DNA from: an uncultured Candidatus Binatia bacterium
GTDB lineage: Bacteria; Desulfobacterota; Binatia; Bin18
Direction of reading: 5' to 3'
DNA length: 64,000 bases
NCBI GenBank assembly: GCA_965116085.1
Contig: OZ220487.1
Coordinates: forward strand, 1,787,185 to 1,851,184
A model generated the notes under the pieces. That model was not told the DNA's origin and did not search any database. It saw nothing but the letters and a program-made list of their open reading frames with translations. The position numbers and the translations under genes are program-made. Position 1 is the first letter of the stretch. Each line of letters opens with the position of its first letter. Positions 7,267-47,387 of this stretch are shown one piece after another.

Positions 7267-10200
7267 TCAACTTGCCTCGCCCGAAAGGACTTCCCAGACC
7301 CGCTTGTATCCGGTCCCCGACAACGCCGCTCCGCCGGGCCTCACACCTTCCCAGTCATCGGCGCCAAGTCCCTGCAGGAAACGCCGCGCCTCTCCCACCG
7401 AATACCTGCGTTCGTCCCTTCCGTTCACCTCCCGGTACAGACTGCCCAGTGCCTCGGCCGCGCTACGCGGTACGGAATTCATGCGCATCAGCACCGCATC
7501 CTCGCTGCTTACACCGTGATAAATCATTGCTGGAAGGGTATTGATCCTGCGTTTTTCCGCTTCTGAGAGCGTGTCGAAATCGATCCCCGACACTCGACTG
7601 AGAGCCGAAACGCCCCACGTTCCGCTGTTCGCGATGGTGCGATAGATCGCTCTGCATGCGTCCGTCAGCGCCGCAGTACCCGCTTCGTCATCTTTCTCGC
7701 GGCTGAAATACTTGCCCGCGATCGCTTCAAGGCCCTTTCCGTTCACCCAGTCGTTGGTGATCTCCGAGATCCTGCTCCGGTCGGAACCGCTGCCGCCCAA
7801 CTCGACCAAGTCCTGCTTGAGTTGTGGCACCCTCAACATAACGCCGAACAGGTCCGCCATTCTGCCTCCGTTGCCGAAGAGGCTCTCCGGCGCCCAGTCA
7901 GCGGCGGTGAGCCCGCTCTCCAAGTTGCGAATGCCGCCCATTGCCGCCCGGACACCTTCCGGCGAGAAGCCGGTCGAATCCGCGAGTTCCGCGATCCCTT
8001 CGGGCATTGCGGCGAGTTCGCGCGCATAGCTCTGCGTCGCGTCCAGGAGAGCATCCGCCTTTCGCCTTTGCTCCGGATCGTTCCGCATAGAGGTGTATCC
8101 GTACGTCTGCCTCAGAAGTTGCTCCGATTCTGCGAGCACCGCGTCCAGATTCTTCTTCTCCGCCCAAAGATGGGCGATGTAACAGCGAAAATCCTCCCAC
8201 TGATCTTTCCAGAGCACTTCCGACAGCTGCGCTAAAGACCCTTGGGCGGCAAGTTCGTCCAGGAGCACCACAAGACGGGATACCAGCGCGCCTGTATTCC
8301 GACTCACAAACTCCATCATCGCATCGCGATCAGTCCCCTCGGACAGACCAACCACGCCTACGCTGTCGTGACCGATGCGACCCGCACGACCCACAAGATT
8401 CCAGAACTCCCGTGCCCCGATTTCCACCGAACTCTTACCCTGCGGCACAAAACGCGAGGCTAGGAAGACTGACGACACCGGGAAGTTGATGCCTTGCGCA
8501 ATCGTCGACGTCGCACACAGCATCCGAAGGCTGCCTGTCTCCGCGAGCCATTCCATAAGCGCCCGGACATCGTCGGACAGCCCTGCATGATGCACGCCGA
8601 TGCCCTGCTCGAGCATATCGATCAGCGGGAATTCGGCACTGATCTCGGTGCGCAGAAAGTCCTGAATCAGCCTGATGTCGGACGGCACCTCGTCCATCTT
8701 CGGAAGGCTCCGCGCCGCTTCACCAGCCATCTTCCAGACCGTTGGAATACTGTTGGTCACGGCAATGCTGGTGCCCCGCGCCGACATCACGGCCCCGATT
8801 GCCGCCGTTTGAAGTCCGAGCCTCTTCTGCACACCATTCGCAAGCACTTGGCTCTTCGGCACATCGATCGGTTTCACGCCTCCCACGCGGTGCGTTCCGT
8901 GAAGCGGCATGGCCTTTTCCGTCGCGGTCAGCGTCTCGAAGTCGAGATGCCAGCCGCCGCGTTCACTGTCATTTGCCACCGCCCGGTAGAGGCCGATGAT
9001 CCGCTCGTTGGGCTTCCACGGAACTGTACCCAGGCTGATTGCATTGCCCGCATCGATGTCCTGCGCCAGCCAGCGCGCCACCGATTCCGTTCCTTCCACG
9101 AAAGGCATCAGCAGGAGGAAGTTTGCCTGCGGACAGTCGCGCTTGACCGTCGCCAAGAGCAGCTCAATCCGGAGGCCCCGACCCTCCGATTCCAAGTTGT
9201 GGGCCTCGTCCATCACTACCAGAGCGAGAGGACGGTCCACCTTCCTGTTGCGAATCACAAGTGACAGCTTTTCCGGCGTTGCGACGAGAATGTGGAACGG
9301 CTCGTCCCTGTCGTTGAGTAGCTCTTCCTCGAACGCGTCCACCTCAATGGCCGCGGTCAACTGTTCGACTCGCAGGCCGATCGGCTCGAAGTCGGCGCGA
9401 AGGCGCCGCGTGATCTGTCCCGACAGCGCACGGGTGGGCGCGACATATACCACCCATCCGCGGTCGCCCTGGAACTGGTTCAATGCCTGCAAGATGCGGA
9501 ACTGCGCGAGCAGTGTCTTGCCGCCCGAAGTGGGCAAGTCGACTACGATCGCGGTCTTCGCCTGGTCGAGCAGCCCCTGCTCAAGCAACGCCGCGCGCTG
9601 TGGCGGCAAGAGCTCGAACATCGCCTGCTGTTTCCGGTGCGTCAGAGAGCGCACGAATTTCGTGGTTCGCGAGTTAACTGTTCGCGTCGCCCACCACAGC
9701 GAATTCGTTACCATGATGCGCGCCGTGGCGTGCAGCCATCTGAGCACCACCTCGTGCTGCGCGTCCCCTGAAGCGGCCGCGGCCCGAATTCCCGCTTCGA
9801 AGTGTTTGTCCAGTGTGCCGAACGGATCGCCCGGTTCGCCCTGGAGCATGTACCTTACCAGCGTCTCCGTCGCTTTCGCCCAGTTGTAAAGTGCCGCCAG
9901 CCGAAGGGCGATCGCCCGGTCTACCGCCTCCGAACCATTTCGCAGACGATGTTCTTCGTGAACCTTCTGGTCGTTGCGCAACCCTGCGATGATCTCGCGG
10001 ATCCGGTCCAGATCGTCCCACCCCTCTTTGCGAAATAACCTGACCCAGCAGGCGAACAACCTGTACAGGAGCCTGCGGTCCCATTCGGCGTCCGCGACGC
10101 TCGGCGCCCTCAACGCCTCTCCCTGTTCCCGATACCAGCGCCGCAGGTCCGACCAGCGATCGCCGCAATAGGCGGCCGCGGAGAGTTGAAGCACGAAGAA

Positions 10201-28796: not shown

Positions 28797-29790
28797 TCAT
28801 AGGCCCCCATCTGATTTGACGGGGGGCGGGCATTGGGGAGTGAGCTTCGGCGGCGGGTAAGTGAAGCGATTGAGGGCGGCCTGTCGACTCGGGCCGCCGC
28901 CCGCCGCTTGGCCATTGGGGAAGCGCCTGCAGGCGCCTGGCATGGCCCGTGGCGCCAGCCCGGCAGTGACGCGGCGCTGGCCCCGGGCGGACGCAAGAGC
29001 TCGATCCGTGATGCCCATGCGCGTTTTCGGATGGGGGTGATCAGCGCCCAAGCCGCCATCCCCCTTGCCGAGAGGGCCAAGCCTCTTGAAGACAAGCGAG
29101 CCCGGCGCGGCGATCCCTCAACGATCGGGTCTTGTCTCAAGCGGCGCGCGCTCCCCTTCCAAAAAAGCCCGCACCCGCGGCAGCCCACGCGCGCCTGATG
29201 GTCTTGCGCAAAAGGCGCGCCTGGGTTTCCGGCCCGCGCGATCTTGATCCCGCAAGGCTGGGGTTCCTCGCCGAGCCCGGCGCTTCCACCAAGAGGGCAC
29301 GCCGTTATGGCCGGTCAAAGCGCGGCGCGCGGTGCCGGGCCCCCAGCCCGCCCGGCCACGGGAAGACCACACCAGTTGGCGGCGCCCGCAGGCGCGCCGG
29401 CATGACCGCCCCCAGGGGGCTCGCCGGGGCCCTGCCCGGTGCCGCCTGCAGCGCCTCTGTGGCACAGGGGCTGGGGTTCCACCCCTCAGCCCCGGCGCTA
29501 TCGTCCTTCTGGACGACCGGCCCGCTCACAAGCCGGTGGCGGTTCGTGAAGCCCTCGAGAAAGCCGGCGCAGCACGGTGCTTCCTGCCGCCAGACAGTCC
29601 AGACTGCAATCCCCTCGCAATGGCGTGCTCGACACTCCAGGCGATTTTGCAAAAAGCCGCCTGCCGAACACTTGATGAACTCTGGGCCAAAAGCGCCGCC
29701 ATAACCGCCTTCTCATCAGACAGAGGGCGCCAACTACTGCAATGCAGCAGGATATCACCCCGTTTGACGTCAAAATGCTCTAATTGGAAC
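28797..29790 (+). pseudogene. Frameshifted IS630-family transposase
   Basis: Three frames carry the pieces: LRRRVSEAIEGGLSTRAAARRL, LDPARLGFL.E.GASTKRARRYGRSKRG.RC and LLDDRPAHKPVAVREALEKAGAARCFLPPDSPDCNPL. Confidence 0.8.
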
Positions 29791-29875
29791 TTCCCCATCC
29801 GTCGGGATCCGCGAATCGCTATTAACCGGGCGTAATATTGCGCCGTTTCAGACAGAGAAACAATCGCGCATCGAA

Positions 29876-30415
29876 CTATGTTCTTGTTTTGAATAAGACA
29901 TACGCGGAGAATGTCCGCCTGTCTTTGATCGGTGCTGCCAGAAAATCCTCGATGACTTTTTCTGCGGCCAGTAGATCAGTGACTACAGTGGACTTGTCGA
30001 GCTTCGTGGCCGGATCGTAATCGGCCAAGTGACGCTTGCTCTGCATAGCGGCAAACAGGTTTGCAAAGTCCTGAATTTCGGCTGGAAATTTGGAAATAAT
30101 GTCGCTGTTTTGACACCTTTTCTTGGCTGCGCTGTGTTCAAGAGCACGGTAAACCTGATTCCATGCCCGCCCGCTACGTTCAGCGCCGGTCCCACCAATG
30201 AGTACATCGGCGGAACATCGCGCCAAAGTATGAAACACGGCGTAGTAGATGGTGCTTGTTGCTCGTAGAAGATTTGCCTGGCGCGGCCTGCTATTCGATG
30301 CCTTTACCAAATCCCACGCCGTTTTCAGCAAATCAAGCGGCTGCACCCCCGCCGGCCTCCAATTCTTTTTTGGAAATGAAGGAGAAGATCGGGAACGCGC
30401 GTTCGCCAATCTCAT
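29876..30415 (-). CDS. HEPN-like protein
   Basis: First helix RATSTIYYAVFHTLARCSADVLIG and a later QSKRHLADYD (R..ADY-type HEPN signature). A GTG at 30347 with GGAGG 9 nt upstream is a likelier start than the longest ORF. Confidence 0.5.
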   Translation of the reverse strand: MRLANARSRSSPSFPKKNWRPAGVQPLDLLKTAWDLVKASNSRPRQANLLRATSTIYYAVFHTLARCSADVLIGGTGAERSGRAWNQVYRALEHSAAKKRCQNSDIISKFPAEIQDFANLFAAMQSKRHLADYDPATKLDKSTVVTDLLAAEKVIEDFLAAPIKDRRTFSAYVLFKTRT

Positions 30416-30647
30416 TCAGTTTCGGGCGTATGTGGCGAGCAGCTCCAGACACGCTATCTGTTAGCAGGTCTTTCGGAGTGCCGTGAAAGACCACGGTGAT
30501 GCGCAATACTTCGTCTCCATCGAAGTCGATGTCACGCACCACATCGACGTCAAAAATTTCAACGTTGTTAAAATCCTTCTTTATGTTATTCAGGACAACG
30601 TCGTGAATTTTCTCGATATCTACAGTTTTCTCAGTCATAAGAATCAA
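30333..30647 (-). CDS. Small acidic protein (hypothetical; candidate partner of the HEPN-like gene)
   Basis: 104 aa in an AT-rich region, immediately upstream of and overlapping the HEPN-like ORF. It contains VRDIDFDGDEVLRITVVFHG. No family was recognised. Confidence 0.45.
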   Translation of the reverse strand: MILMTEKTVDIEKIHDVVLNNIKKDFNNVEIFDVDVVRDIDFDGDEVLRITVVFHGTPKDLLTDSVSGAARHIRPKLNEIGERAFPIFSFISKKELEAGGGAAA

Positions 30648-32152
30648 CGCTCATATCCGCCCCGACCATCGGGAAAAGGTGTGTGAAGCCACCTCGATGA
30701 AAACACTCCTGTGTCTGTTATTGTGACCGGCACCCACTAAGTTGTCCACTGCGTTTTTTTAGTGCATGAGCGGTCTCTTGTCCATCGGGCGACGGTTTTT
30801 TTGGCATCTCCCCTGGGCCGGGCGTGTTGTCGGTATCGATCACAGTACGGAGAAGATAGGGGTTGCGGTTGCACAATGCACGGATCGATCCTTCGCCGGG
30901 TTTGCCTCTTGAACTACCGATGTGGATGTTTGACCGGCTGATCTGCTTGGCGGTTAGCTTTCTGGAGGATCCAAGAGTTGACTCCTCGCCGCTCTCGACT
31001 GCGCGATATTTGCCCACTTTGATGACCGCGCAACTGAAGTACTGGTGGGGCAATGCGATTTCCGGAGACTGGCCTTTGGATTAAAATCTCCTTCTGAGGT
31101 CAATTGCCACTCCATGGGAGAAACATCGCAGGGCGCGTGACATGACCAAAAACACCGAAACATCCACGATCGAATCGGCGAACGGGGACGCGCATGCGGC
31201 CCGTTAAGCGATGCGGGCAGGGGCGATCCCGGAGCGCCGGTCCGAGGCCTCCAGGGAATGGGTCGATTTCCCGGCCGGCCCCTATGCGCCCGAGGACCCG
31301 CGGTGAACCGCCCCGCCAGCGAACGAACGGGCGATGAACGCCCCATGCAACGGCGGTGGTGCGCCCGCTAATGCCTGCCAGGTCGATGCGCCGCCGCTTC
31401 AGGACACCGAACCCGGCACCGAACCGGATACCCCCGATACACCCCCCCTCCCGATTCATCGACGCCTAGGCCACAGCCCCCGAGGCGGCGCGGCAGCGGC
31501 TCACGGCCGGAGCGCCGGGCCGAGGCGCTGATCGAAGGCGGCCTGCCCGCATCCGAAGCCGACCGTATCGCCGCACAAACGGCCCTTGTCTCTGGAAGCG
31601 GCATCTCGGCCGCCTCGCTCGGTCGCTGGCGCCAGCAGGTGAAGGGCGCCGGGCGCGGTGTCCGCGTTGCGCTCTTACTGGAGCGGCCGCGCACCGGCCG
31701 TCCGGGCGGCGTCACGCCCGACTAGGCCAAGACCCTGGAAGCGCCCGCCTGGTATCACGGCCCGCACCTGACGGCCTCAAACGGCGAGAGATCGCCAGCC
31801 GGAAGCGGCGATGGGACGACGTGCTGCGTGGTGCTGAGGAAGAGGCCGCCCGCATTGCCGTCCTGCAGCGCAAGGCCGTTCCGCACGACACGCCCGCCCT
31901 GCGCCAGGCTGATGCAGCCGCCACGGCCGATGCAGCCGGCCGAACCGGTACCGGTCAGCCCCGTGCTTTGACGGCGGCCGCCAAACTACTCCTCGGCGAT
32001 GATGACTGAAGAAGGGAAGAGACATGGAAAACGCACGAAAGATCACGCCCGTCGCCCGGTTTGAAACCGGCAGGGCGGAGCGCCAACGTCATGATCCCGA
32101 CGCCAGGGATCTGAAGGCTTCGGATACGTAAGTCCAAAATCTGAGAGGACGC

Positions 32153-33486: not shown

Positions 33487-33990
33487 TTGAGGGAGGTGGA
33501 CATGGCGCTGAGCGCACCGGGCGAGGCTCACAGGAAGGAGATCAGCCTCAAGAAGCTGAGCGATATGTTCCCCGACAATGAACGGGCGCGGGCTTGGCTC
33601 GAAGAGCAGGCTTGGCCGCATGGTCCCTACTGTCCCCGGTGTGGCGGCTTCAATGTGCAGAGTGGGCAAGCACAAGACGATGACTCACCGCTGCCGCGAC
33701 TGCCCGAAGCGGCCGCAGTGCAGCTTCAAGACCGGGACGATCATGCAGTCGCCCTATCTCGCTACCGCGATTGGACTATTGCCATCTATCTGTTGACGAC
33801 GAACCTTAAAGGCGTCTCGGCAATGCTGCACCGTGACCTTGAGATTGCCTGTACTCCCGCATGGCACTTGGCGCACCGGTTACGGGAAGCGTTTGACAGT
33901 GGTGACGCATCGCTCTCTACCGGCCCCACCGAAGCTGACGAAACGCATATAAGCGGCAAGAGGAAGAACAAGATGGATCCGCACGGGCCT
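33487..33990 (+). pseudogene. IS1595-family transposase N-terminal fragment, frameshifted
   Basis: Carries WPHGPYCPRCGGFNVQSG, then in another frame KHKTMTHRCRDCPKRPQCSFKTGTIMQS, then IAIYLLTTNLKGVSAM.LHRDL...AWHLAHRLREAF and DETHISGKRKNK. Confidence 0.75.
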
Positions 33991-34019
33991 GCCGATGCGG
34001 TTAGCAAACGACGCTTGCG

Positions 34020-34513
34020 GCGTGCGGAACGCTGCAACTCGAAAATACCTCACCGCCGATCACCTTTGGTATTTTCCGCCACCGGCAGCTTTCGTGCAAA
34101 TGGCGGCCTATGCGAACGAACATGGCGACTCAGCAGGGCGTCCGTATTTTCAGCATAGACGGCAAGCGCCCGCTCAGCGAAGCCGAGTGGGCAGCCAAGC
34201 GAGCGAAATTCAATTGCTCGGTCGGCGTCACCAATGTCTGGCGTACCCTCATGTTTCGGGCGGCGAGCGTATAGCTGGCGAACGAAGCGCGAGGCAATGG
34301 AAATTCAAGAGTCTTCACGGTAGCCAGAAGCCGCTTCCGTTGATCGATCTGACCATTGCAGCTAGCACCGATCCCGGCGATACGGTGTGGGAGCCGTTCG
34401 GAGGCTTATGTCCTGCTGCGGTGAGCGCTCTGCGCTTGGCCCGTGCGTGTCACAGCGCGGAGATCGTCCCGGAGTTCTACAATGCCACTGTCGTCCGCCT
34501 CGCCAGCGCCTAA
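34020..34513 (+). pseudogene. N4/N6 DNA methyltransferase (PF01555-type) C-terminal fragment, frameshifted
   Basis: Carries SQKPLPLIDLTIAASTDPGDTVWEPFGGLCPAAVSALRLAR.CHSAEI. An upstream piece ...GVTNVW... lies in another frame. The DPPY-side N-terminus is missing. Confidence 0.7.
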
Positions 34514-35030
34514 GAGCCGCGTGAGCCGGTCGAGTGGGAGCATTTCGACCTGTGGCGGCGCGTCGGAAGATCCCTGCTCGCCGTTCCAGACCACTTCACA
34601 ACCTCAATCAGCATCGAAGGGCTGTCGGCAACGGACATCTTCACGCTGAATGCTCCGCTCGGGGCGACCATCGAAGACTCGGTCGTCAAAACTCTGAACA
34701 GGCTGCGGCCGGCGTGGGACCCGGATTCGAGATACCAGACCTATTCATTCGTTCGGCAGGCACAAACTTTCCCCGATGTCGTCCTGCGCACGATCAACAA
34801 CGGATCGACACCGCTTATGGGGATCGAGATGAAAGGCTGGCATCTCCTCGCCAAAGAGAAAGTGCCGACATCTCGGTTCACTCAAACCGCCGCGGCTTGC
34901 GCTCCTTGGGACTTGCTGGTTGTCTTTCCTTGGGTGCTATCTAATGTGCTGGCGGGGACGGGCGTTCTTTCCCGCCCGTTTGTGCGGCACGCCCGGTATT
35001 GCGCGGAGAATCGCAATTACTATTGGCAGC
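34482..35030 (+). pseudogene. PD-(D/E)xK restriction-endonuclease-like gene, frameshifted at the 5' end and 3'-truncated
   Basis: Own translation gives ...TFPDVVLRTINNGSTPLMGIEMKGWHLL..., a D...ExK pattern. No in-frame start follows the TAA at 34511. The gene ends where IS5-like sequence begins. Confidence 0.5.
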
Positions 35031-35032
35031 CG

Positions 35033-35207
35033 CCGCTCCAAAACCCGCGCTCAAGTCGAACATCCCTTCGCCCGCATAAAGCACCTCATGAGGTTAACCG
35101 TACGCACGACCGGTACCGCCCGTGCCACAACCAGGATTGTTTTGGCTAATCTCGCCCATAACTTCCATCGCATGGTCTGGCTCAACAGGAGCGTTGTGCC
35201 CAGATGA
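35033..35207 (+). pseudogene. IS5-family transposase C-terminal fragment
   Basis: Carries SKTRAQVEHPFARIKHLM.LTVRTTGTARATTRIVLANLAHNFHRMVWL. Confidence 0.7.
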
Positions 35208-35307
35208 GGCAAAACGGGTCGTAAAGAGCGATGGAACGACAAAACCCAATCAAAATCGGAACCGAACAACCATCAAAAGCAGTTCCCAAACGACACGATA
35301 TTCGTGG

Positions 35308-36474
35308 TCAATCAGAAACCATCTGGTTCTTCGAGGTGCTCGACTTCTGCGAATATCTCAGTGCAGGTCGTCGTCGGCGCATTCGAATGACGAAATCGTG
35401 TTCCTGTCTTTTTCCCTTGGTTCCCGGCCTGAAGGCATTTGTTTGCCGGTTCTTGATGTCGGTAGATCTTGGACGATCAGCGAGGCGTATGTCGAAATTT
35501 TGTAGAGCCGAATCAACTCCAGCAATTAGATTGGTCTCAATATCTTCAACACTCAACCTGCCTCCGCCAATTCTGACAGCCATTGTCGCCTCATCGTCGA
35601 GTAGATTCTCCAGGCCTTGCCATGCTTCAATGAGGAAAGCCCAATATCGGGACGAGACATCATGTCGGCCGTCTGGGAATAGGCCCCCTTTGGGACGCTG
35701 GCCTCCACCCAAGAACCAAAGGCGCAGCCACTGATCCTCGCCATAGTCAGTAGTGTCCAAATAGGGCGGTGATGTCAGAACCAATTTCACTCGGCGTCTA
35801 AGGCCAACAAAAACCCTGCCTGCCAGACGGGCATCTGCAAGTTTAGCTCGTCCCGCTTGTTTTGGGATACCCTGATTGAAACGAAACCCGACTTGGTTCA
35901 GGAGGATTTCAAAAACGTCTCTCTCCGGCGCCTTGTACCCGTGCCTCCGCCACCACCGGATCGAGTATGCGGGTTTTGTAGAAATTGTGCGTGGCATCCG
36001 ATTTGAAAAGCAATTGGCCGATTTGTGCGACTCGCCGTGCAGGCACCCAAGCGCCATTGCGGCGACAAACCGATCAACTTTCCTTGAAGTCCAATTCAGT
36101 TCGGAGCGAAGGAAGAGAATTTGCTTGAGCGTACCAATGGAAAAGCAATACTCAAAAAAAGGTTCATCCAAGTTTACTTCAACAGAGGTGTGGTCAAACT
36201 TCCGAGCGAGTTCCACTATCCGCCGCCTGACATTTTGTGGCGCAGGTGGATCAGCCTTGGCACCCGACACACACGCAGCAACCGGATTGATATCTGTTCC
36301 GTATGCGGGCCGACCAAGAAGGAGGCTTTCAAAAATAGTCGTTCCGCGGCCAGAGAATGGATCGAATACTATTTCGCCAGGTTCGGTATATGCCAGTACG
36401 TATTGTTGGACGAACTCCGGGGGAAACATAGCGAAGTATGGGCATATGGAATGAAGTGGATGAACCGCACTCAT
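35308..36474 (-). CDS. DNA methyltransferase (motif I before motif IV; SPPY type, N4-C or N6-A)
   Basis: Carries VFDPFSGRGTT (motif I) and LVLTSPPYLD (motif IV). There is an ATGA overlap with the upstream gene (36471-36474). Confidence 0.8.
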   Translation of the reverse strand: MSAVHPLHSICPYFAMFPPEFVQQYVLAYTEPGEIVFDPFSGRGTTIFESLLLGRPAYGTDINPVAACVSGAKADPPAPQNVRRRIVELARKFDHTSVEVNLDEPFFEYCFSIGTLKQILFLRSELNWTSRKVDRFVAAMALGCLHGESHKSANCFSNRMPRTISTKPAYSIRWWRRHGYKAPERDVFEILLNQVGFRFNQGIPKQAGRAKLADARLAGRVFVGLRRRVKLVLTSPPYLDTTDYGEDQWLRLWFLGGGQRPKGGLFPDGRHDVSSRYWAFLIEAWQGLENLLDDEATMAVRIGGGRLSVEDIETNLIAGVDSALQNFDIRLADRPRSTDIKNRQTNAFRPGTKGKRQEHDFVIRMRRRRPALRYSQKSSTSKNQMVSD

Positions 36475-37532
36475 ACTTCACCACGCACAGACTGGGTCGT
36501 TTGCGCGCACCAATCTACGACAGTGTGGAGTTTATCCGCTGCTACTTTTGCAGAAGGTTCGGTTTGGCGAAGCGCCTCGATAGCGTAAAGAACGACTCTT
36601 GAGCGATCTAATATGAGACCCATTTCTTTCTCAATTTGGGAGTAGAAACCCTTCATGTTTTCTTCAGTCCGAAGGCCATGGGTATTCTCTTTTCCCATGT
36701 ACAATGGAAATGGCAAGAGAAGCGCCGGGAGCCAATGTTTGGATGGTGGCTCAAAATAGTACCCATTGAGGCGGTCTACTTTTGCGGCAACTGGCTTGCC
36801 TTCCCAATTCATTCCTGATGCACATTGCCCATAGATGATGATTTTTGCCGGGCGCTCATCGGCATGATGTCGCCATGCTACAACATCGACCCCCGCGTCT
36901 TTCGCATGCATCGTCTCACCAGGTGGACGATCTCCCCTCGCTTGTCCAGTTTTCAGGAGACCTGCGAGTTTTTTTACCGCGTCGATCAAGGGCGTGTTGT
37001 CGGGACGCGGAGCGCCGAACCAATACGCATCGCCTTTTATATACCCCGCCGCCGCAAGCGTTGCGCAGACCTGGAACAGATTGCCTATCGTGGGGTCGAC
37101 CTGAATGTCGGCGGCTCTGGCATCAATTATTCCGCTTCGCAATGCAGACATTAACAAGCAGGCCCGGTATACATCTCGACCACTTGAAACACTTTCATCT
37201 TGCAATTCTTCAGCGCGCTTTAGGCGCAGATGATGACGTAAAAACGCAGTGTCAAAAGGGTATGCCTGACCGAGCTCTTGTTTGCGGCGTCCAACCTCTT
37301 CGAACAAAGCGTTGAGCCCGTTTTCTTGTGCAGGATCAATTATATCCTGGTCGTATTCTTCCGAGGTCGCATCAATCTCAACTATTGCGGCCCGGTCTTC
37401 GAGGAAACCGCCCGGTGCCGTTAAATCGTTGTCAGAGGCCTCGCCAGTTGGCCTTAACAGGCAAAGGAGTTCGAGCCAGTCCGCAGCTACAGAAAATGAG
37501 TCAGTCAATTTAGGCGGGCTGACAAATTTCAT
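36471..37532 (-). CDS. Uncharacterised 353-aa protein, possible degenerate PD-(D/E)xK nuclease
   Basis: It has ATGA overlaps on both sides. The C-terminal half contains AKDAGVDVVAW....KIIIYGQCASG, a D...QxA pattern that resembles Mrr-type cores but lacks the Lys. No family was recognised. Confidence 0.6.
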   Translation of the reverse strand: MKFVSPPKLTDSFSVAADWLELLCLLRPTGEASDNDLTAPGGFLEDRAAIVEIDATSEEYDQDIIDPAQENGLNALFEEVGRRKQELGQAYPFDTAFLRHHLRLKRAEELQDESVSSGRDVYRACLLMSALRSGIIDARAADIQVDPTIGNLFQVCATLAAAGYIKGDAYWFGAPRPDNTPLIDAVKKLAGLLKTGQARGDRPPGETMHAKDAGVDVVAWRHHADERPAKIIIYGQCASGMNWEGKPVAAKVDRLNGYYFEPPSKHWLPALLLPFPLYMGKENTHGLRTEENMKGFYSQIEKEMGLILDRSRVVLYAIEALRQTEPSAKVAADKLHTVVDWCAQTTQSVRGEV

Positions 37533-38602
37533 AAATCATCAAGGCCCTTTTCACGGTCCCTATAGTCGCGAAACGATTTGAAAAGGGTTCGCGCCCCTTG
37601 AAAAAGACGGTTGCCAAGCTCAAATAGGTTCTCTCGACCGTCAAATGACCCTGAAAGCGAAAGTGAGGTTTCAGTTTCGCGCACTGCCTTAGTCAATGCT
37701 GTTTCAAGTCGCGCGCTTCTGGGTTCCAATTCTTCCCATGCCTCATTCAGATCCCGCGTTCTTATCAAAACATCGCGTGTATGCTCGTGTGCCATTACAT
37801 TGGCCAATCGATTAAGGTCCGGATTCTGAGATTTTACCAGTGCCGGCTCAGATTCACCCTGACCATATAGCCATGACATAAGCTGAGCGAGCTTATCGCT
37901 GTTTTGTGCAGGAACCGGGGCGGAAGTCGGATCTTCTTGCAGTTCCAGCCAGTCACGGATGGGGGCGCGAGTGATTGCGGTATAAAGATGAGAAAAAGCC
38001 AATCGTCTTGCGGTTCTCCGTTCGGGGTCGAAGCCATCGCATACGGCCTGCTGATAGACCCGAAATCCATAGACAAGCCGTTGAACTGTATTGAATGTAT
38101 CACCGAGAGACTTGCTTATCGTTTCTAAAGAAGCGCCGGTTTCAAACCAATCTGTTGCATATTTCGCCTTCGACATCGCATCCCATTTGCGTGGGCCGTT
38201 TATGTGCTTGAAACCAATAAAGTTTCGGGCTTCTGTGTGGTCCTTGACGATAACGGCCCTGATTTTATCTGGTCGTGCATCTTCACCCGGTTCAGATGGC
38301 AATACGACTTCAAGCCGATCTCTCAGCTTGGAGTCCCTGATGAGCTTTAAGGCCGCAACTCGTCTGTTGCCCTCAAGGACAACATTATCCTCTTTTACTA
38401 TGATTGGCTCGAAGTCCAGGTAGCCGGAGTTAATAATCGACAGCAATAGCTCGTCAATATCCGCTTCCTCGATCAGATATTTGAGCATATCCTCTTCGTC
38501 TTCAAAGGACATTCCAATGAAGCGTGGATTCTCCAGATTGAGCCCAAGAGAGATCACTTCGACATCTTCGATCCTATATTTTTGAGCTTCCATGCAAGCC
38601 AA
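37529..38602 (-). CDS. ParB/Srx-fold N-terminal domain protein
   Basis: Carries PIIVKEDNVVLEGNRRVAALKLI (ParB-type GxRR box) followed by a long helical C-terminal region. It is the first gene of a three-gene overlapping operon. Confidence 0.7.
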   Translation of the reverse strand: MACMEAQKYRIEDVEVISLGLNLENPRFIGMSFEDEEDMLKYLIEEADIDELLLSIINSGYLDFEPIIVKEDNVVLEGNRRVAALKLIRDSKLRDRLEVVLPSEPGEDARPDKIRAVIVKDHTEARNFIGFKHINGPRKWDAMSKAKYATDWFETGASLETISKSLGDTFNTVQRLVYGFRVYQQAVCDGFDPERRTARRLAFSHLYTAITRAPIRDWLELQEDPTSAPVPAQNSDKLAQLMSWLYGQGESEPALVKSQNPDLNRLANVMAHEHTRDVLIRTRDLNEAWEELEPRSARLETALTKAVRETETSLSLSGSFDGRENLFELGNRLFQGARTLFKSFRDYRDREKGLDDL

Positions 38603-38685
38603 GTTCTCGCAAAAGTTCAGGTCAGGTTGTATTTATCCTCCCTGCCCCGTTCCGTCTATCCCATGAGCAACCAAATCATGGATAA

Positions 38686-39800
38686 TCAAGGGAGCTTCGG
38701 CAGCCCGAGTTCGGACAAAAACACGTTGTGGGGTTGCTTTGCCTTGGTGATCTTGTCTTCCAGCGCTTCAAGCACGCGGTGCGTTCCGGCAAGATCAACC
38801 TCTTTTTCGGCCCCGGCGATGCTGACATAACGGGCGATGTTGAGATTGAAGCCCTTTTCTTCGATCTCATCCACTGCAACGCGCCGCGAAGCGGTCTTCT
38901 TCCTTGCGAAACCGCTAGGTTTCGACGATATCTGCGATATGGTCCCCGGTCAGTTGATTTTGACGTTTGCCCTTCTTGAAGCGGCCCGGCCCTGCCGCGT
39001 TGATGAACAGGACATCGTCGTGTTTCCTGCACCACTTCAGAACGAGGAGGCAAACCGGTATTCCGGTCGAAAAGAAAAAGCTCGCGGGCAAGCCGATGAC
39101 CGCATCGATGTGGCCGTCCTTCAGGAGCCTGGTCCTGATCTTCTCCTCCGCCCCGCCGCGGAACAAAACGCCGTGTGGCTGGCTGGTCGCCAGGGGGAGC
39201 CTTCCTGCTTCAGGTAGTGGAAACCGTGGAGCAGGAAGGCGAAATCGGCGGGCAGACCTGGAGGTGAGGCCGCAGTTCCTGAAACGGGCGTCCTCGCCGA
39301 GGGTTTCCGACGGACCCCAGCGATAGCTGAAAGGCGGATTGGCGACCACGGCATCGAAGCGCGGCATTCTGGCCGGGTGCGCTTCCCTCGGCATGTCCCA
39401 GTCATTGGTCAGCGTATCGCCGTGAAAAATCTCGAACTCCGTGTCCCTGACCCCATGCAGTAGCATGTTCATGCGGGCCAGGTTGTAAGTCGTGATGTTG
39501 CGTTCCTGTCCGTAGATCTTGCCGATGCCGTGCGGGCCGAGCCGGTTTCGCACGTTCAGCAGCAGCGAGCCGGAACCGCAGGCGAAATCGAACACGCTGT
39601 CGATATGATCCTTCCTGCCCAATGTCGGGTCCTGACTGTCGAGGGCGACAATCTCCGACAGCAGGATGCAGGAAATCTGTTGCGGGGGGTAGAACTCGCC
39701 CGCCTTCTTGCCGGACCCGGCCGCGAACTGGCCGAGTCAGGTACTCATGGACATCGCCCAGCGTATCATTGTCTGCCGAAAAACCGACAAGGCCCCTGGC
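38686..39800 (-). pseudogene. hsdM: Type I R-M methyltransferase subunit HsdM, multiply frameshifted and 5'-truncated
   Basis: Carries GEFYPPQQIS, FDFACGSGSLLL, VVANPPFS and a C-terminal EEKGFNLNIARYV, spread across at least three frames. Confidence 0.8.
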
Positions 39801-39829
39801 GACCTCCTCAATGACGCCACATAGCCTCG

Positions 39830-40037
39830 GCAGGAAAGTTGACCCGGAACGGTTCAGAAGCCGGGGCGCGACCGGGGCATGAGGGTGGTATGATCGCAAG
39901 ACCGCTCTCGCCATGGTCCTTCGTCTTATGATGTCCGCGAAGAGGAAGTGGCACTTTCCGGTGCTAATCAATTGCCCGAAGTCATCCAAGGGGTTGAGTT
40001 CAAAGACGGGATCAAGCAAGTTCAAGTCGTCGCCTGA
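39830..40037 (+). pseudogene. IS256-family transposase C-terminal fragment
   Basis: Carries RKTALAMVLRLMMSAKRKW, then with a +2 shift LSGANQLPEVIQGVEFKDGIKQVQVVA and a stop. Confidence 0.6.
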
Positions 40038-40135: not shown

Positions 40136-41175
40136 ATGAAAAAAACGGTTCTTATTCTCGGTGCAGGCTCCTCTGCTGATTACGGTTACCCACTATGGTA
40201 TGCATTGAAAAAAGAGGTGCTCGCATTCGATATAAATCGGGATCTAGCAGGCCTGCACCTATCGCAAAATGAGATAGCTTCCCATAAAGCGGCTTTCGAA
40301 GAGTTCAAGAAGTACTTAGATCGAGAACCTGATGCGACGCTAGATCGCCTTGTCTTTTTGATTGATCAACCAAAGTCAAAGCATCTTAGTCCGACAGGGC
40401 ACTTGATCCTCAATCTAGCCGGATATCTCCTCGTGCAAGTTGAGCGTCAAGGTCTTGATGGCCTGTGGGTCTCGGAATTTCAAACTCTCTTGGTAGACTA
40501 TTTGGCTAGTCTGAGCGGTCAGGCAGGCACTGGTCAGAATCACCTCCAAAACCTTACTATCGTATCTCTAAACTACGACCGTGTTTTTGAGCACTTTGTC
40601 AGTGCAGGATTTTATAAAAAGCTGTGCGCGCATCCTGAATATAACCCACCGGATCAGCGGTTTAGTAGCATTTTTCACACGAAAATGTGCTCTCAGTATT
40701 AAAACCCCATGGATACATCAGTGGGCTGGCTTACAATAACGGCGTGAAAGAGGCGGGGATGGACCGAGACTTGGTGATCTCAGGAGGGCATACGACGGGC
40801 ATTCGGTACCCCGGCAATGATCAAGCTATTGCGTATGGCAGCCCCCAAATTGCAACAAAGGAAACCTTCCTTCGGATGGGGCGCCATATGTATGTCGCAG
40901 GTGAAAGAGATATCAGCGACTATAATGTAGCGAATCAAGCGCTTCAAAACGCTGAGATTGTTTTTTGCTTAGGACTTTCTCCTGCTGGAATTTGCCAAAG
41001 TTCATTTAATTTTGGAGATGGTCAGACTGTTTACCTGTCAAACAAGGGCGAAGAACTTGACGAAATCGAGGCTTGTAAAGGCTCTGCAAAATTTCAATCT
41101 CTCGGAACAGCTACCAATCGGCTGAACTCACAAGATTTTCCAAACAAGTTTAAATCTTTAGTCTTTGAATCATGA
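40136..41175 (+). pseudogene. Stand-alone SIR2-like (SIR2_2) protein split by one frameshift
   Basis: Carries ILGAGSSADYGYP and SLNYDRVFE in ORF 40136-40702, and LKPHGY in ORF 40687-41175. The frames join at TTTTTCACAC (40671-40680). The region is AT-rich. Confidence 0.65.
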
Positions 41176-43744: not shown

Positions 43745-45076
43745 CTAGCTTCTTTCAATCGCCTCGGTTTTGAAGCTGAAACTGCAGATTCGCGCGGTTG
43801 CGGCCTCCATCACTGAACCGTGGATGAATTCAGGGAAATCTTTCGGCAGCGAAGCTTCGAGGCGCGAGAATGCCTCTTCCGCCGCGTTTGCAATTTGCTC
43901 GATCGCGTCGGGGACAAGCGTTTTTGGCAGGCCGGCTTCTATCCCTGTCTGGATAAAATGCCGGGGATGAATATTGGTGAATCGGTAGTGGCGGTTCTTG
44001 CCGACCGACATGGCCAGCTTCATCTGCTTGCGATTGATCTGATTGCTATCGAGGCTCGGCTGTGCGGTCAGCACATCGTAGAGCGGTGTCAGATGAAAGC
44101 TGCCGCCCGGGCCGAGATATATGCTGAAGTTTTTGGCGTGGCCGTCCGTTGTGCCGAGCAGCCAGAATAGCAACTGCGCCTTGACGAAGACCATATGATC
44201 TTTTGCCGGCGTGTCGCTGCCTTTGAGAAGATCAAGGATCGTGACCATGCCGGGACCGCCGTCACTTTGGTATTTCAGTGGAGGGGGTACCGACAACGCC
44301 TGACAGCAATCTTCTTGCGGCAATCGCAGCAGCCGGCCATCTCTTGTCCAGCGACGATCGAAACGCTTGATGACGAGCGCCTTCGTTTCTCCGAAGGTTT
44401 TGATCTCGGCTTCGTTCACCGGAAGGCCAAAAGCCTCAATGAATTTGAGGCAGTAAAATTCGTTCTCCACGCTATTTGATAGATCGACTCCATTCGGCAA
44501 CTGACCGATCTGCGTTTTGAACAGATGCGTGGTTGGCGTCGTGCCGTGAGGCTTGATCCATTTGTCGTCATGCCAGAGGAGGGCGGTCTTTTCCTGTGCG
44601 CCCGCCACCGATATGCGAAACTCGTCGTCACGGTTCAGGCCCAACGGTGCTTGCGTCAGACTGCGAAGCAGCCGGTCTATGGCCTCGTCATCGACGACAT
44701 CGCCTTCGATCTTGCCGGTGACGTCAATCTCTTCATCGCCATCGGCTATGAATTGCAATGCCCCGACACAATCCCGGCCAATCGCAGCAAGCAGACTGTA
44801 GGCATCGGTTCTGCGGGCTCCGACCTTTTCGGCTACGCGGCGACGCAGCGCATAAGAGTCCGGTAGCAGGTTCTCGAAGACCGCGGCAACGGATTCGCCA
44901 TGGAAGGGCGTCTCGCGGAGAGGGAAAGAAAGGGAGACCGGTATGGCATGCTCCCATTCCAGCCAGCTTTCTTCATACTGAAAGCCGACCGCGCCACTTG
45001 ACGCTCTGGTCAGATGGCCGACCAAGCGGTTGTTCAGGAAAACTCGCAGCCGTGGACGTTGACGATGGCGTGGCAT
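43745..45076 (-). CDS. hipA: HipA-family serine/threonine kinase toxin
   Basis: Carries LRVFLNNRLVGHL, SVAGAQEKTAL, GHAKNFS and LTPLYDVL. ATG 45076 overlaps the hipB stop by 1 nt. Confidence 0.9.
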   Translation of the reverse strand: MPRHRQRPRLRVFLNNRLVGHLTRASSGAVGFQYEESWLEWEHAIPVSLSFPLRETPFHGESVAAVFENLLPDSYALRRRVAEKVGARRTDAYSLLAAIGRDCVGALQFIADGDEEIDVTGKIEGDVVDDEAIDRLLRSLTQAPLGLNRDDEFRISVAGAQEKTALLWHDDKWIKPHGTTPTTHLFKTQIGQLPNGVDLSNSVENEFYCLKFIEAFGLPVNEAEIKTFGETKALVIKRFDRRWTRDGRLLRLPQEDCCQALSVPPPLKYQSDGGPGMVTILDLLKGSDTPAKDHMVFVKAQLLFWLLGTTDGHAKNFSIYLGPGGSFHLTPLYDVLTAQPSLDSNQINRKQMKLAMSVGKNRHYRFTNIHPRHFIQTGIEAGLPKTLVPDAIEQIANAAEEAFSRLEASLPKDFPEFIHGSVMEAATARICSFSFKTEAIERS

Positions 45077-45327
45077 CAAAAGATGTCCTCGATGGCGTCT
45101 GCATGGGCTTTCGAGCGGGGCACGATTCTGAATTCCAGATCGAGCGCGGCGAGGATCGCTAGGATGGTTTCCAGCTTCGTGGCTGGATTACCTGTCTCGA
45201 TCAGGGAAATCGTCTCCTGCCGCAAACCGGCGATGTTGCCGAGTTCCGTCTGATTGAGGGCCCGCTTTTTGCGGGCGCGTTGTACGATGTTTCCGATCTG
45301 CTTCGGATTGCGTGCTAAATCTGCCAT
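45076..45327 (-). CDS. hipB: HipB-like XRE-family HTH antitoxin
   Basis: 83 aa with RKKRALNQTELGNIAGLRQETISLIETG. It lies immediately upstream of hipA. Confidence 0.85.
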   Translation of the reverse strand: MADLARNPKQIGNIVQRARKKRALNQTELGNIAGLRQETISLIETGNPATKLETILAILAALDLEFRIVPRSKAHADAIEDIF

Positions 45328-45926: not shown

Positions 45927-46987
45927 ATGTCGAGCGTCTTTCTTCTTCCGGCCCGTGAGCGGGATGTTCGTCGGGGAGCCTCCTGGAGACGCCGGGGGTT
46001 CCTCCCGGTGAGCCTTCCGGTGACACAGCACAATGCATTGTTCCCGGCGCTGGTCTCCGAGCCAGCCCGCGCCGCCGTGCTGCTCGCGGAACACTTGCCG
46101 CCAGAGGTAGCCGCTCTCCTCGACCCCGAGATCCCGCCCGAGGCGGTCGAAGGCAGCTTCGGCGACGAGGCCACCGCGCGGACCCAGTGCGACGAGCTCT
46201 TCCGGGCCAGGCTGAGGAGCGGTCACGATGCGCGCCTCTATGTGCTGCTCGGACACAAGAGCCGGGTCGACGCCGACACGCCGCTCCATCTCCTGAAATA
46301 CATGGTCAACATCAGGCGCCGTGAGATCGAGGACGGCGCCGCCGGGGACAGGCTGCCAATGATCGTCCCGCTGGTTTTCTACCACGGCCGGGGCCGCTGG
46401 ACGGCGGCGCGCCCGGTGTCGGGGATGATCGACGCGCCTGGGGAGTTGGAGCCGTTCGTCAGGGAGTTTGCCTATGTGGTGCACGATCTCGGGGGGAGAT
46501 TGCGCCCCGCCGGCTGTCGGTCTCGCCCGAGGTACGGGCTGGGCTCTGGCGCTCAAGGTTGTGCATACCGAGGAGATTCCGCCGGATCTTCTCGACCAGA
46601 TGACGGGCGGACCGGTTGCGGGAGCGCGTTCGAGCGTCATCTGGTGCGCTACATTGCCGAGCGCATGAACCTGACGCCGCCGTTGCTGGAGGCGTCGCTG
46701 CACCGGACGAAGCCGGATCGCCGGGAGGCGCTGATCGGCACGGTGGCGCAAGCCTGGATCGAACAGGGAATCGAGAAGGGAATCGAACGAGGTCGGAAGG
46801 AGGGCCGGAGACAAGCCTTGGCGGAGCTTCTTCGTCAACTGGCGCTGCGCTTCGGGGATGTGCCGGATGCGTCCGCGAACGGGCCCGCGACGCGTCGGCA
46901 GCCGAACTGGAGGCTTGGGCGGAGGCGGTGCTGGTGGCCGCGAGTCTCGGCGAGGTGCTGGCCGCCGAGGAATTGCCGGGCAGATGA
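45927..46987 (+). pseudogene. Rpn-family (YhgA-like, PD-(D/E)xK) recombination-promoting nuclease with local frame disruptions
   Basis: Carries HNALF, LLGHKS, PLVFYHGRGRW and ALIGTVAQAWIEQGIEKG. The segment 46491-46625 is readable only by passing through all three frames. The C-terminus ...AAELEAWAEAVL... is in another frame and ends at 46987. Confidence 0.75.
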
Positions 46988-47044
46988 CGAGATCGTGCGG
47001 ACCGTGTGCGCGTTGCGGCGGGAGCCGGCAATGCACCCGAACCG

Positions 47045-47155
47045 GGTCGCAAGCCGGCCTCGACGCGGCGACGGTCGGCGGCCTACACGGAGGTGGCGCT
47101 CACCCCATTGCGTTGGGAGGTCGCAAGCCGGCCTCGACGCGGCGACGGTCGGCGG
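47045..47155. repeat. Two perfect 37-bp direct repeats separated by 37 bp
   Basis: GGTCGCAAGCCGGCCTCGACGCGGCGACGGTCGGCGG occurs at 47045-47081 and 47119-47155. Confidence 0.9.
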
Positions 47156-47387
47156 GGCCATCATGGCGAACGCATGCCTGCCGCGGCGGGCCCGGTTATC
47201 CGGCATGCTTGCGGATCTGGACCGGCTGCGGGCGCCGGAGACCGGCAACGATTCGGCGGCCTGCGCGCAGAACCCCGCCCGCCGCTGAAGCGGATCGGGA
47301 CGGCATGTTCATGTGTCGTCGGACAGGGCAGCCTGTGGGTTTAGGGTCGGTGATGTCTTTTGACGGACAGCCTCTACCTGCCAGCGC

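Follow-up and report, generated by a model that had tools for sequence, protein, structure and literature searches.

PD-lambda-5 and the Operon in the Window

The PD-lambda-5 system of Escherichia coli is an experimentally validated two-gene defense system that is carried by a P2-like prophage and for which the term "compact RM+Abi system" has been used (Vassallo et al. 2022, PMC9519451), RM and Abi standing for restriction-modification and abortive infection, and the effector domain of its PD-Lambda-5_A protein has been reported as HEPN (10.1101/2024.10.26.620412; PMC3710099). It is the nearest named relative of the operon considered here, which consists of three genes on the minus strand at positions 35308-38602 of a 64,000-nucleotide stretch from an uncultured Candidatus Binatia bacterium (contig OZ220487.1, positions 1,787,185 to 1,851,184; this whole stretch is called the window below). 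Read in their order on that strand, the genes encode a ParB-like protein (gene 1), a protein of an unannotated family (gene 2) and a DNA methyltransferase, or methylase (gene 3). The trio most likely represents a restriction-modification (R-M)-like defense of a kind not yet described, which is related to PD-lambda-5, and a probability of roughly 60% is given to the reading that it is a three-gene R-M-type defense operon, with genes 1 and 2 as the restriction component and gene 3 as the protective methylase.

In both systems a ParB-like protein is combined with a methylase, and the homology of the N-terminal domains of gene 1 and PD-Lambda-5_A is plain: residues 13-158 of gene 1 align with residues 24-176 of PD-Lambda-5_A-like proteins (hhalign 98.1%), and in many PADLOC models of PD-Lambda-5_A it is the N-terminal ~150 positions that gene 1 matches (best E-value 2.2e-17). 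Moreover, a representative of the D12 methylases that accompany genes 1 and 2 in related loci (see below) matches PD-Lambda-5_B with an E-value of 5.8e-110, and in 18 such loci from Actinomycetota (L018-L029, L032-L034, L036, L037 and L039) a full PD-Lambda-5_A and PD-Lambda-5_B lie directly beside the gene 1-gene 2 pair (E 1.2e-44 for the PD-Lambda-5_A representative), apparently as a cluster of four genes with a single D12 methylase in common.

The differences are nevertheless considerable. PD-Lambda-5_A measures ~470-500 amino acids (aa) and carries its own C-terminal effector, whereas gene 1 shares the first ~150 residues only and continues into a KorB/ParB-like central region; residues 11-174 of gene 1 correspond to positions ~4-183 of PADLOC profiles that are 428-526 positions long, while a true PD-Lambda-5_A taken for comparison from one of the actinobacterial loci (L034) matches end to end (15-495 versus 9-463, E 1e-44). 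Gene 1 also has an obligate, separately encoded partner, gene 2, which is dissimilar to PD-Lambda-5_A; comparison of the gene 2 profile with PD-Lambda-5_A-like proteins by hhalign gave a probability of 0.1%, so gene 2 is not a split-off piece of that protein. The methylase of the window is of the N6_N4 family and that of PD-lambda-5 of the D12 class, and PD-Lambda-5_B is absent among the best 25 PADLOC matches of gene 3, the top ones being MTase_II models. Finally, the pair is chromosomal and PD-lambda-5 is prophage-borne. Because the match is confined to the N-terminal domain, the methylase is of another class and there are three genes instead of two, the trio is taken as a relative of PD-lambda-5 and not as a member. 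Relative to the sensor-like N-domain of PD-Lambda-5_A, gene 1 is accordingly a paralogue, which is devoid of the fused effector and is always accompanied by gene 2 instead.

An earlier note, made from the sequence of the window, had found no named class for this architecture, which stands insofar as neither a paper nor a PADLOC model naming it was found, and has to be amended insofar as a named relative exists. A literature search for a named system with a ParB-like protein, a gene 2-type partner and a methylase found none, and gene 2 lies outside the models of PADLOC (v2.0.0, 2023), Pfam and NCBIfam (2026). A candidate PADLOC model, PDC-M38A, also matches gene 1 (E 2e-19); no mention of PDC-M38 was found in the literature searched.

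Organization of the Operon

Gene 1 extends over 37529-38602 (357 aa from a TTG at 38602, or 354 aa from the ATG at 38593 chosen in the public gene call), gene 2 over 36471-37532 (353 aa) and gene 3 over 35308-36474 (388 aa). These open reading frames (ORFs) are joined by two ATGA overlaps, both read directly on the minus strand, one between the stop of gene 1 and the start of gene 2 at 37529-37532 (GATGATTTATGAAATTT), the other between the stop of gene 2 and the start of gene 3 at 36471-36474 (GAAGTATGAGTGCG), and arrangements of this type point to translational coupling of neighboring genes. The first junction is also a 4-base-pair (bp) overlap or a direct abutment in the related loci L001, L006 and L007, and the 4-bp overlap at the second junction is also present in L007, L008 and L002. 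The three ORFs are not a product of chance, because full-length homologues of each protein occur in many genomes. When the operon was scanned for promoters and terminators, no signal rose above the shuffled expectation.

The fraction of guanine plus cytosine (GC) is 0.48-0.53 over 35000-39000, versus 0.60-0.72 in the flanks. On these points the earlier note was accurate: it had described three intact minus-strand ORFs joined by two ATGA overlaps, in a region more AT-rich than its surroundings and bracketed by insertion sequence (IS) and R-M debris, which has been located (see the last section), and the motifs that it quoted were all found, namely LEGNRRVAALKLI in gene 1, KDAGVDVVAW...IIIYGQCASG in gene 2, and FDPFSGRGTT and TSPPY in gene 3.

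A Constant Gene Pair and Exchangeable Methylases

Related loci were gathered from protein look-ups (L001-L008) and from a scan in which each species was represented by one genome (L009-L088), L001 and L009 being the same place and L002-L004 one population, and the ORFs of these 88 loci were searched with profiles of all three proteins. Gene 2 is present in all of them (88/88), and gene 1 lies directly upstream of it on the same strand in 87, the remaining locus being cut by a contig end. Pairwise identity in the one protein tracks that in the other (r = 0.93), with a median of 32% for gene 1 versus 25% for gene 2. The sources of the loci are spread over Alphaproteobacteria, Acidobacteriota, Actinomycetota, Gemmatimonadota, Bacteroidota/Rhodothermales, Chloroflexota, Planctomycetota and Patescibacteria.

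In 83 of the 88 loci, the pair has a DNA methylase as its neighbor, which belongs to one of three unrelated classes: the N6_N4 family of gene 3 (22 loci), a D12/Dam-like class (43 loci; PF02086, E 7e-19) and a C5 class (18 loci; PF00145, E 1e-68). The placement of the D12 methylase varies, as it can be found upstream, downstream on the same strand or downstream on the opposite strand. When gene 2 was ordered by neighbor joining, the D12 and N6_N4 classes interleaved and the C5 class formed one clade. The interleaving means that, as in R-M systems, methylases have repeatedly been exchanged while the core stayed constant, and a fixed core of two genes with methylases that can be swapped is typical of restriction-modification. 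The order of the window trio, often with 4-bp overlaps, persists down to 30-36% identity of gene 2. The proposal of an R-M-like module with its own methylase, conserved as a unit in other genomes, was thus borne out with regard to the conserved order and the neighboring methylase, and needs revision in that the fixed unit is the gene 1-gene 2 pair, around which the methylase swaps among three classes.

The likeness to classical R-M systems (type II, and the types with several subunits that depend on nucleoside triphosphates, or NTPs, namely types I/III and McrBC-like ones) consists of a methylase tightly linked to a putative restriction component, by ATGA coupling in the window and by adjacency in the 83 loci, of methylase classes exchanged around a conserved core, and of the location in a variable island. 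The difference lies in the restriction part, which is here a fixed pair, one member having the ParB fold and the other being unannotated; in neither of them was a helicase, AAA+ or specificity-subunit domain found, and any use of NTPs would go through a ParB-type switch, such as is described for none of the R-M types in the literature searched.

Some individual loci show further features. In L005, a small HEPN protein (102 aa, PF05168) is encoded directly after gene 2 at 8973-9281 of that locus and recalls the HEPN domain reported for PD-Lambda-5_A. Two gene 1-gene 2 pairs are found within ~5 kilobases of each other in L076, where they are convergent, and in L083, where they are in tandem. L007 lies beside conjugative transfer genes. 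In the alphaproteobacterial metagenome-assembled genome of L001/L009 (2542-6731), the trio stands immediately downstream of the chromosomal gidA-gidB-parA-parB operon, and this neighborhood of a canonical ParB and gene 1 is probably coincidental.

The Three Proteins

Gene 1 is predicted to consist of an N-terminal domain of the ParB-CTPase type, a central helical region resembling a DNA-binding domain, and a helical C-terminus. Its N-terminal domain, in which LEGNRRVAALKLI is read, bears an NPR and an EGNRR box, although in Pfam there is solely a sub-threshold match to ddrB-ParB (E 0.08). An AlphaFold model based on 31 homologues (predicted local distance difference test score, pLDDT, 84) was compared with known structures by Foldseek, and the matches were KorB (8qa9, E 4e-5), ParB with bound cytidine diphosphate (6sdk) and Noc (7ng0), with probability 1.0 over ~250 columns that span both the CTPase-type N-domain and the DNA-binding region that follows it. 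Across 84 homologues, the NPR box, E74-G75-N76-R77-R78, H130, G133 and W137 are kept in 96-100%; the E74-R78 stretch, which is of the ParB box II type with its GxRR phosphate-binding motif, reaches 98-100%, and so do H130 and W137. Gene 1 therefore has, in its model, the ParB N-domain fold with a box II GxRR motif, in agreement with the ParB N-terminal box recognized in the earlier note.

With ParB, KorB and Noc, gene 1 shares the predicted fold of the N-domain and the DNA-binding region as well as the conserved NPxxR-like and GxRR boxes. It differs from them in the box III region, which reads FKHINGP instead of ENLQR, in its C-terminus and in its partners, which are a nuclease-like protein and a methylase; the binding of CTP and clamping would be putative properties of gene 1. 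The operonic ParA partner and the segregation role that go with canonical ParB are also missing, as no ParA adjoins gene 1 in the window or is found among the recurrent neighbors of the related loci, the parAB genes upstream of the trio in L001 being the chromosomal ones by gidAB. A PNAS survey from 2025 reported that nucleotide specificity is predicted neither by sequence nor by AlphaFold3 (PMC12704722).

The earlier suggestion that the kin of gene 1 are to be sought among the DUF262 proteins (GmrSD, BrxU and SspE) and DndB had to be given up in favor of ParB/KorB/Noc-type proteins and PD-Lambda-5_A, as Pfam profiles gave zero matches: neither DUF262 nor DUF1524 matched gene 1 or gene 2 at E<=1, and a match to the DndB profile was likewise not obtained. 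The likeness is one of principle, in that ParB-superfamily domains work there with nucleases in a defense that is aware of DNA modification. The GmrSD/BrxU/SspE enzymes, however, are single-chain, modification-dependent (type IV-like) and without a methylase of their own, whereas here the nuclease-like part is encoded by a gene of its own, to which a methylase is linked.

Gene 2 belongs to a large family that is not annotated. As the earlier note had said, it matches nothing recognized: no match was obtained in Pfam, NCBIfam, PADLOC or the PDB sequences, whether with the single protein or with profiles of 31 and 109 sequences, and a member-by-member scan of the 109 homologues (~22-34% identity, except for two closer relatives) produced noise only, with Mrr_cat in 2/109 at E ~0.08. 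A profile search of 1.84 billion representatives returned 3,068 clusters at 50% identity with E<=1e-3, and 727 with E<=1e-30. Among the best 150 of the 3,068 clusters, every protein stands alone, with a length of ~155-385 aa and in most cases of 290-370 aa.

The AlphaFold model of gene 2 has a pLDDT of 89.5. Its best Foldseek match, and its only notable structural neighbor, is MspJI (4f0p), with an E-value of 4.5e-3 and a probability of 0.97 but a weak template modeling (TM) score of 0.24; PspGI ranks fifth, and no significant match was obtained against viral structures. In 109 sequences, E21, R83, P92, Y122, D212, D216, Q236 and R310 are invariant, and D18, W19, D225, A238, G240, W243, K246 and R312 are nearly so. 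In the model, D212 and D216 stand before one strand, Q236 ends the next strand, and a helix begins just after K246, an order that would be expected of a PD-(D/E)xK core in which the usual lysine is replaced by alanine. The D...QxK motif typifies MspJI/Mrr-type enzymes, and gene 2 has in common with MspJI an Asp that is followed, after ~19 residues, by a Gln ending the next strand; it differs from MspJI in the very weak overall match, in the change of the lysine to alanine, and in its linkage to a methylase, contrary to the logic of a type IV enzyme. Gene 2 is put forward as a putative effector, most likely a diverged DNase of the PD-(D/E)xK type. The assignment as a nuclease, proposed beforehand as a possible degenerate Mrr-like core, is weak: it leans on the resemblance to MspJI, with its low TM score, and on a D...QxA motif in which the canonical lysine is absent, and a comparison of the gene 2 profile with E. 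coli Mrr by hhalign gave a probability of 0.3%.

Gene 3 is a methylase of the N6_N4 family, as shown by a match to PF01555 above the gathering score (E 3.4e-15) and by the PADLOC MTase_II model (E 7e-28). The AdoMet motif I, FDPFSGRGTT, occupies residues 37-46 and the catalytic motif IV, TSPPY, residues 234-238, in the order that the earlier note had given. With motif I on the N-terminal side of motif IV, gene 3 has a permuted order in comparison with the Pfam profile, which matches it in two stretches, the N-terminus of gene 3 being aligned to the C-terminal part of the profile. The methylases that follow the gene 1-gene 2 pair in L001 and L006-L008 are 51-61% identical to gene 3 with an invariant TSPPY, and both motifs are conserved among full-length homologues. 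An SPPY motif in the N6_N4 family favors N4-cytosine methylation. The TSPPY of gene 3 thus suggests N4-cytosine as the target, and N6-adenine is also possible.

Proposed Mechanism and Alternative Explanations

In the mechanism that we propose, gene 3 would methylate a motif in the host DNA, and gene 1 would read DNA through its KorB/ParB-like central DNA-binding region, the binding of a nucleotide at the conserved GNRR pocket being, by analogy with the NTP switches of ParB-fold proteins, the event that lets it engage unmethylated target DNA. The ATGA coupling would keep gene 2 in a fixed ratio, and gene 2 would be the effector that is recruited or activated by gene 1 and cleaves the DNA. This scheme implies that genes 1 and 2 may form a complex, that gene 1 may bind an NTP and gene 2 act as a nuclease, that methylation would block the attack, and that the operon would protect its host against phages or plasmids. 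The invariant acidic, polar and basic residues of gene 2 at ~25% identity, together with its restriction endonuclease (REase) neighbor in the structural comparison, were counted in favor of the effector role, and the low-GC island with its IS fragments, decayed hsdM, SIR2-like ORF and HipA in favor of defense.

A further-reaching version, which is offered tentatively, is that genes 1 and 2 constitute a new mechanistic class, in which a ParB-type switch or clamp, gated by cytidine triphosphate (CTP) or another NTP, would be loaded onto unmethylated recognition sites and would license a dedicated nuclease from a previously unrecognized family. If this were true, it would be a third NTP-dependent kind of restriction, beside those driven by helicases or translocases (types I/III) and by AAA+ proteins (McrBC), and the module would work with methylases producing N6-methyladenine, N4-methylcytosine or 5-methylcytosine.

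Several observations weigh against the R-M-type reading. The assignment of gene 2 as a nuclease leans on the weak Foldseek match (TM 0.24) and on a D...QxA motif whose QxK lysine position is alanine (A238) in 95% of members, and profile searches of gene 2 against Pfam and the PDB find nothing. In gene 1 of the window, residue 19 (codon 38537-38539, numbered from the ATG at 38593), which just precedes the conserved NPR box, is Asn, while Asp is found in 95% of the 84 homologues (LNLENPRF versus LDLENPRF). In five loci (L005, L059, L063, L078 and L086), none of the three methylase classes is represented next to the pair, L017 shows just a methylase fragment, and for the D12 methylase of the 18 actinobacterial loci the true partner could be the neighboring PD-Lambda-5_A and not the pair. 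In L002-L004, the methylase has an in-frame TAG (9128-9130 in L002) where relatives have CAG (Gln), and genes 1 and 2 are open; the TAG was seen in three metagenome assemblies of the one population and could be a nonsense mutation, a case of read-through or a sign that loss of the methylase is tolerated. This TAG and the fragment in L017 are unexpected if unmethylated self-DNA is always lethal, and for the methylase-poor loci it may be that loss of the linked methylase is tolerated or that another methylase, encoded elsewhere in the genome, protects.

One alternative would be an orthodox type II R-M system with a large controller, in which gene 2 alone is the endonuclease and gene 1 a KorB-like transcriptional regulator that times expression, in the role of a C protein. 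Gene 1 is indeed the first gene of the operon, its structural matches include KorB, a transcriptional repressor, and its central region resembles a DNA-binding domain, while the place of gene 2 next to the methylase is that of a type II endonuclease. We hold this to be unlikely, since gene 1, with its ~357 aa, is better conserved than gene 2, with which it is paired near-obligately (87/88 loci), and since the residues of its pocket (NPR, GNRR and H130) are conserved at 96-100%, which a plain repressor would not need. In addition, its homologue PD-Lambda-5_A carries an effector of its own, reported as HEPN (10.1101/2024.10.26.620412; PMC3710099), and its ParB-type domain therefore works with effectors and not just as a regulator.

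The roles of the two proteins could also be reversed, with gene 1 as a catalytic ParB/Srx-type NTPase or nicking nuclease and gene 2 as an inactive REase-fold protein that binds DNA or reads its modification. Nicking and NTPase activities have been reported for proteins of the ParB/Srx superfamily, according to work cited in PMC12839542, inactive REase domains serve as DNA sensors in Menshen NsnA (PMC12065111), and gene 2 does lack the canonical (D/E/Q)xK lysine. The charged and polar set E21, D212, D216, D225, Q236, K246 and R310, which is kept at such low overall identity, nevertheless looks more like an active site than like a binding surface. A DGxHR-type box is the mark of ParB-like nucleases, and the box of gene 1 is instead GNRR, as in the ParB proteins with a CTP switch; the reversal is therefore considered improbable as well, to about the same degree as a type II system. 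Far less credence still is given to a role outside defense, in which the trio would serve the maintenance, partition or epigenetic regulation of a mobile element, its ParB-like protein and methylase acting on the DNA of that element itself. Fusions of ParB-fold domains and methylases are common in phages, where they are thought to be anti-defense (PMC12704722), IS fragments abound in the island that holds the copy in the window, and the conjugative transfer genes next to L007 would suit such a role. The pair, however, is almost absent from mobile DNA, with 4 of 72,556 plasmid records, one weak match in 50,697 phages and one locus among the IMG/VR contigs, and this rarity disfavors partition and led to the rejection of an explanation by plasmid partition or phage carriage. 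Many of the related loci, moreover, sit in ordinary chromosomal neighborhoods, there is no ParA partner in the window, and the swapping among three methylase classes would be hard to explain for a regulatory mark. An R-M-type defense operon, in which genes 1 and 2 restrict and gene 3 protects, is thus the explanation that we favor.

Significance

The findings are best filed as new with respect to the unrecognized, widespread effector family and its ParB/KorB-type subunit, and as known with respect to the R-M-like logic and the kinship with PD-lambda-5. The gene 2 family, with its ~3,000 clusters, is annotated in none of Pfam, NCBIfam and PADLOC, and the gene 1-gene 2 pair is not modelled by PADLOC v2.0.0; because gene 1 falls below the Pfam thresholds for ParB, the pair may also escape Pfam-based surveys of ParB-fold proteins. 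If the pair is a restriction module, a widespread R-M-like system would be added to genome annotation, PD-lambda-5 could be understood mechanistically as a ParB-type sensor whose effectors are interchangeable, and ParB-type nucleotide switches would extend from chromosome segregation and transcription into immunity. On the practical side, systems of this kind bar transformation, and their methylases define motifs that look orphan in a methylome. New defense systems are found often; the idea of restriction by a ParB switch plus a nuclease is notable to specialists and directly testable.

Genomic Surroundings

From its contents, the setting of the trio is a variable island rich in defense, toxin and IS remnants. 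On the side of gene 3, the plus strand carries a fragment of an IS1595 zinc-ribbon transposase (33487-34158), a fragment of a second N6_N4 methylase, namely its C-terminal part with motif I (33995-34513), and the tail of an IS5-type DDE transposase (34920-35207), which ends ~100 bp from the gene 3 stop. Farther out on this side, a second low-GC patch (0.50-0.55) lies at 29500-31000 and contains ORFs, such as the one at 29876-30415, that have no match in Pfam or PADLOC.

On the side of gene 1, the remains of a type I hsdM in decay are distributed over at least three minus-strand ORFs at 38686-40025, one of which, at 38915-39622, is recognized as a type I HsdM fragment (N6_Mtase, E 5e-53; PADLOC MTase_I, E 1.5e-66). 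The C-terminal end of hsdM lies ~80 bp upstream of gene 1, so that the trio occupies the spot expected for hsdS/hsdR. Two overlapping plus-strand ORFs follow at 40136-41175 in a patch with a GC of 0.46; the first of them starts MKKTVLILGAGSSADYGYP and matches the PADLOC SIR2 model weakly (E 4e-5), Pfam gives no match for this SIR2-like ORF, and the two together may be a frameshifted SIR2-like defense gene. Beyond them lie a complete HipA-type toxin kinase on the minus strand at 43745-45079 (HipA_C, E 2e-49) and a YhgA-like Transposase_31 protein on the plus strand at 45927-47288.

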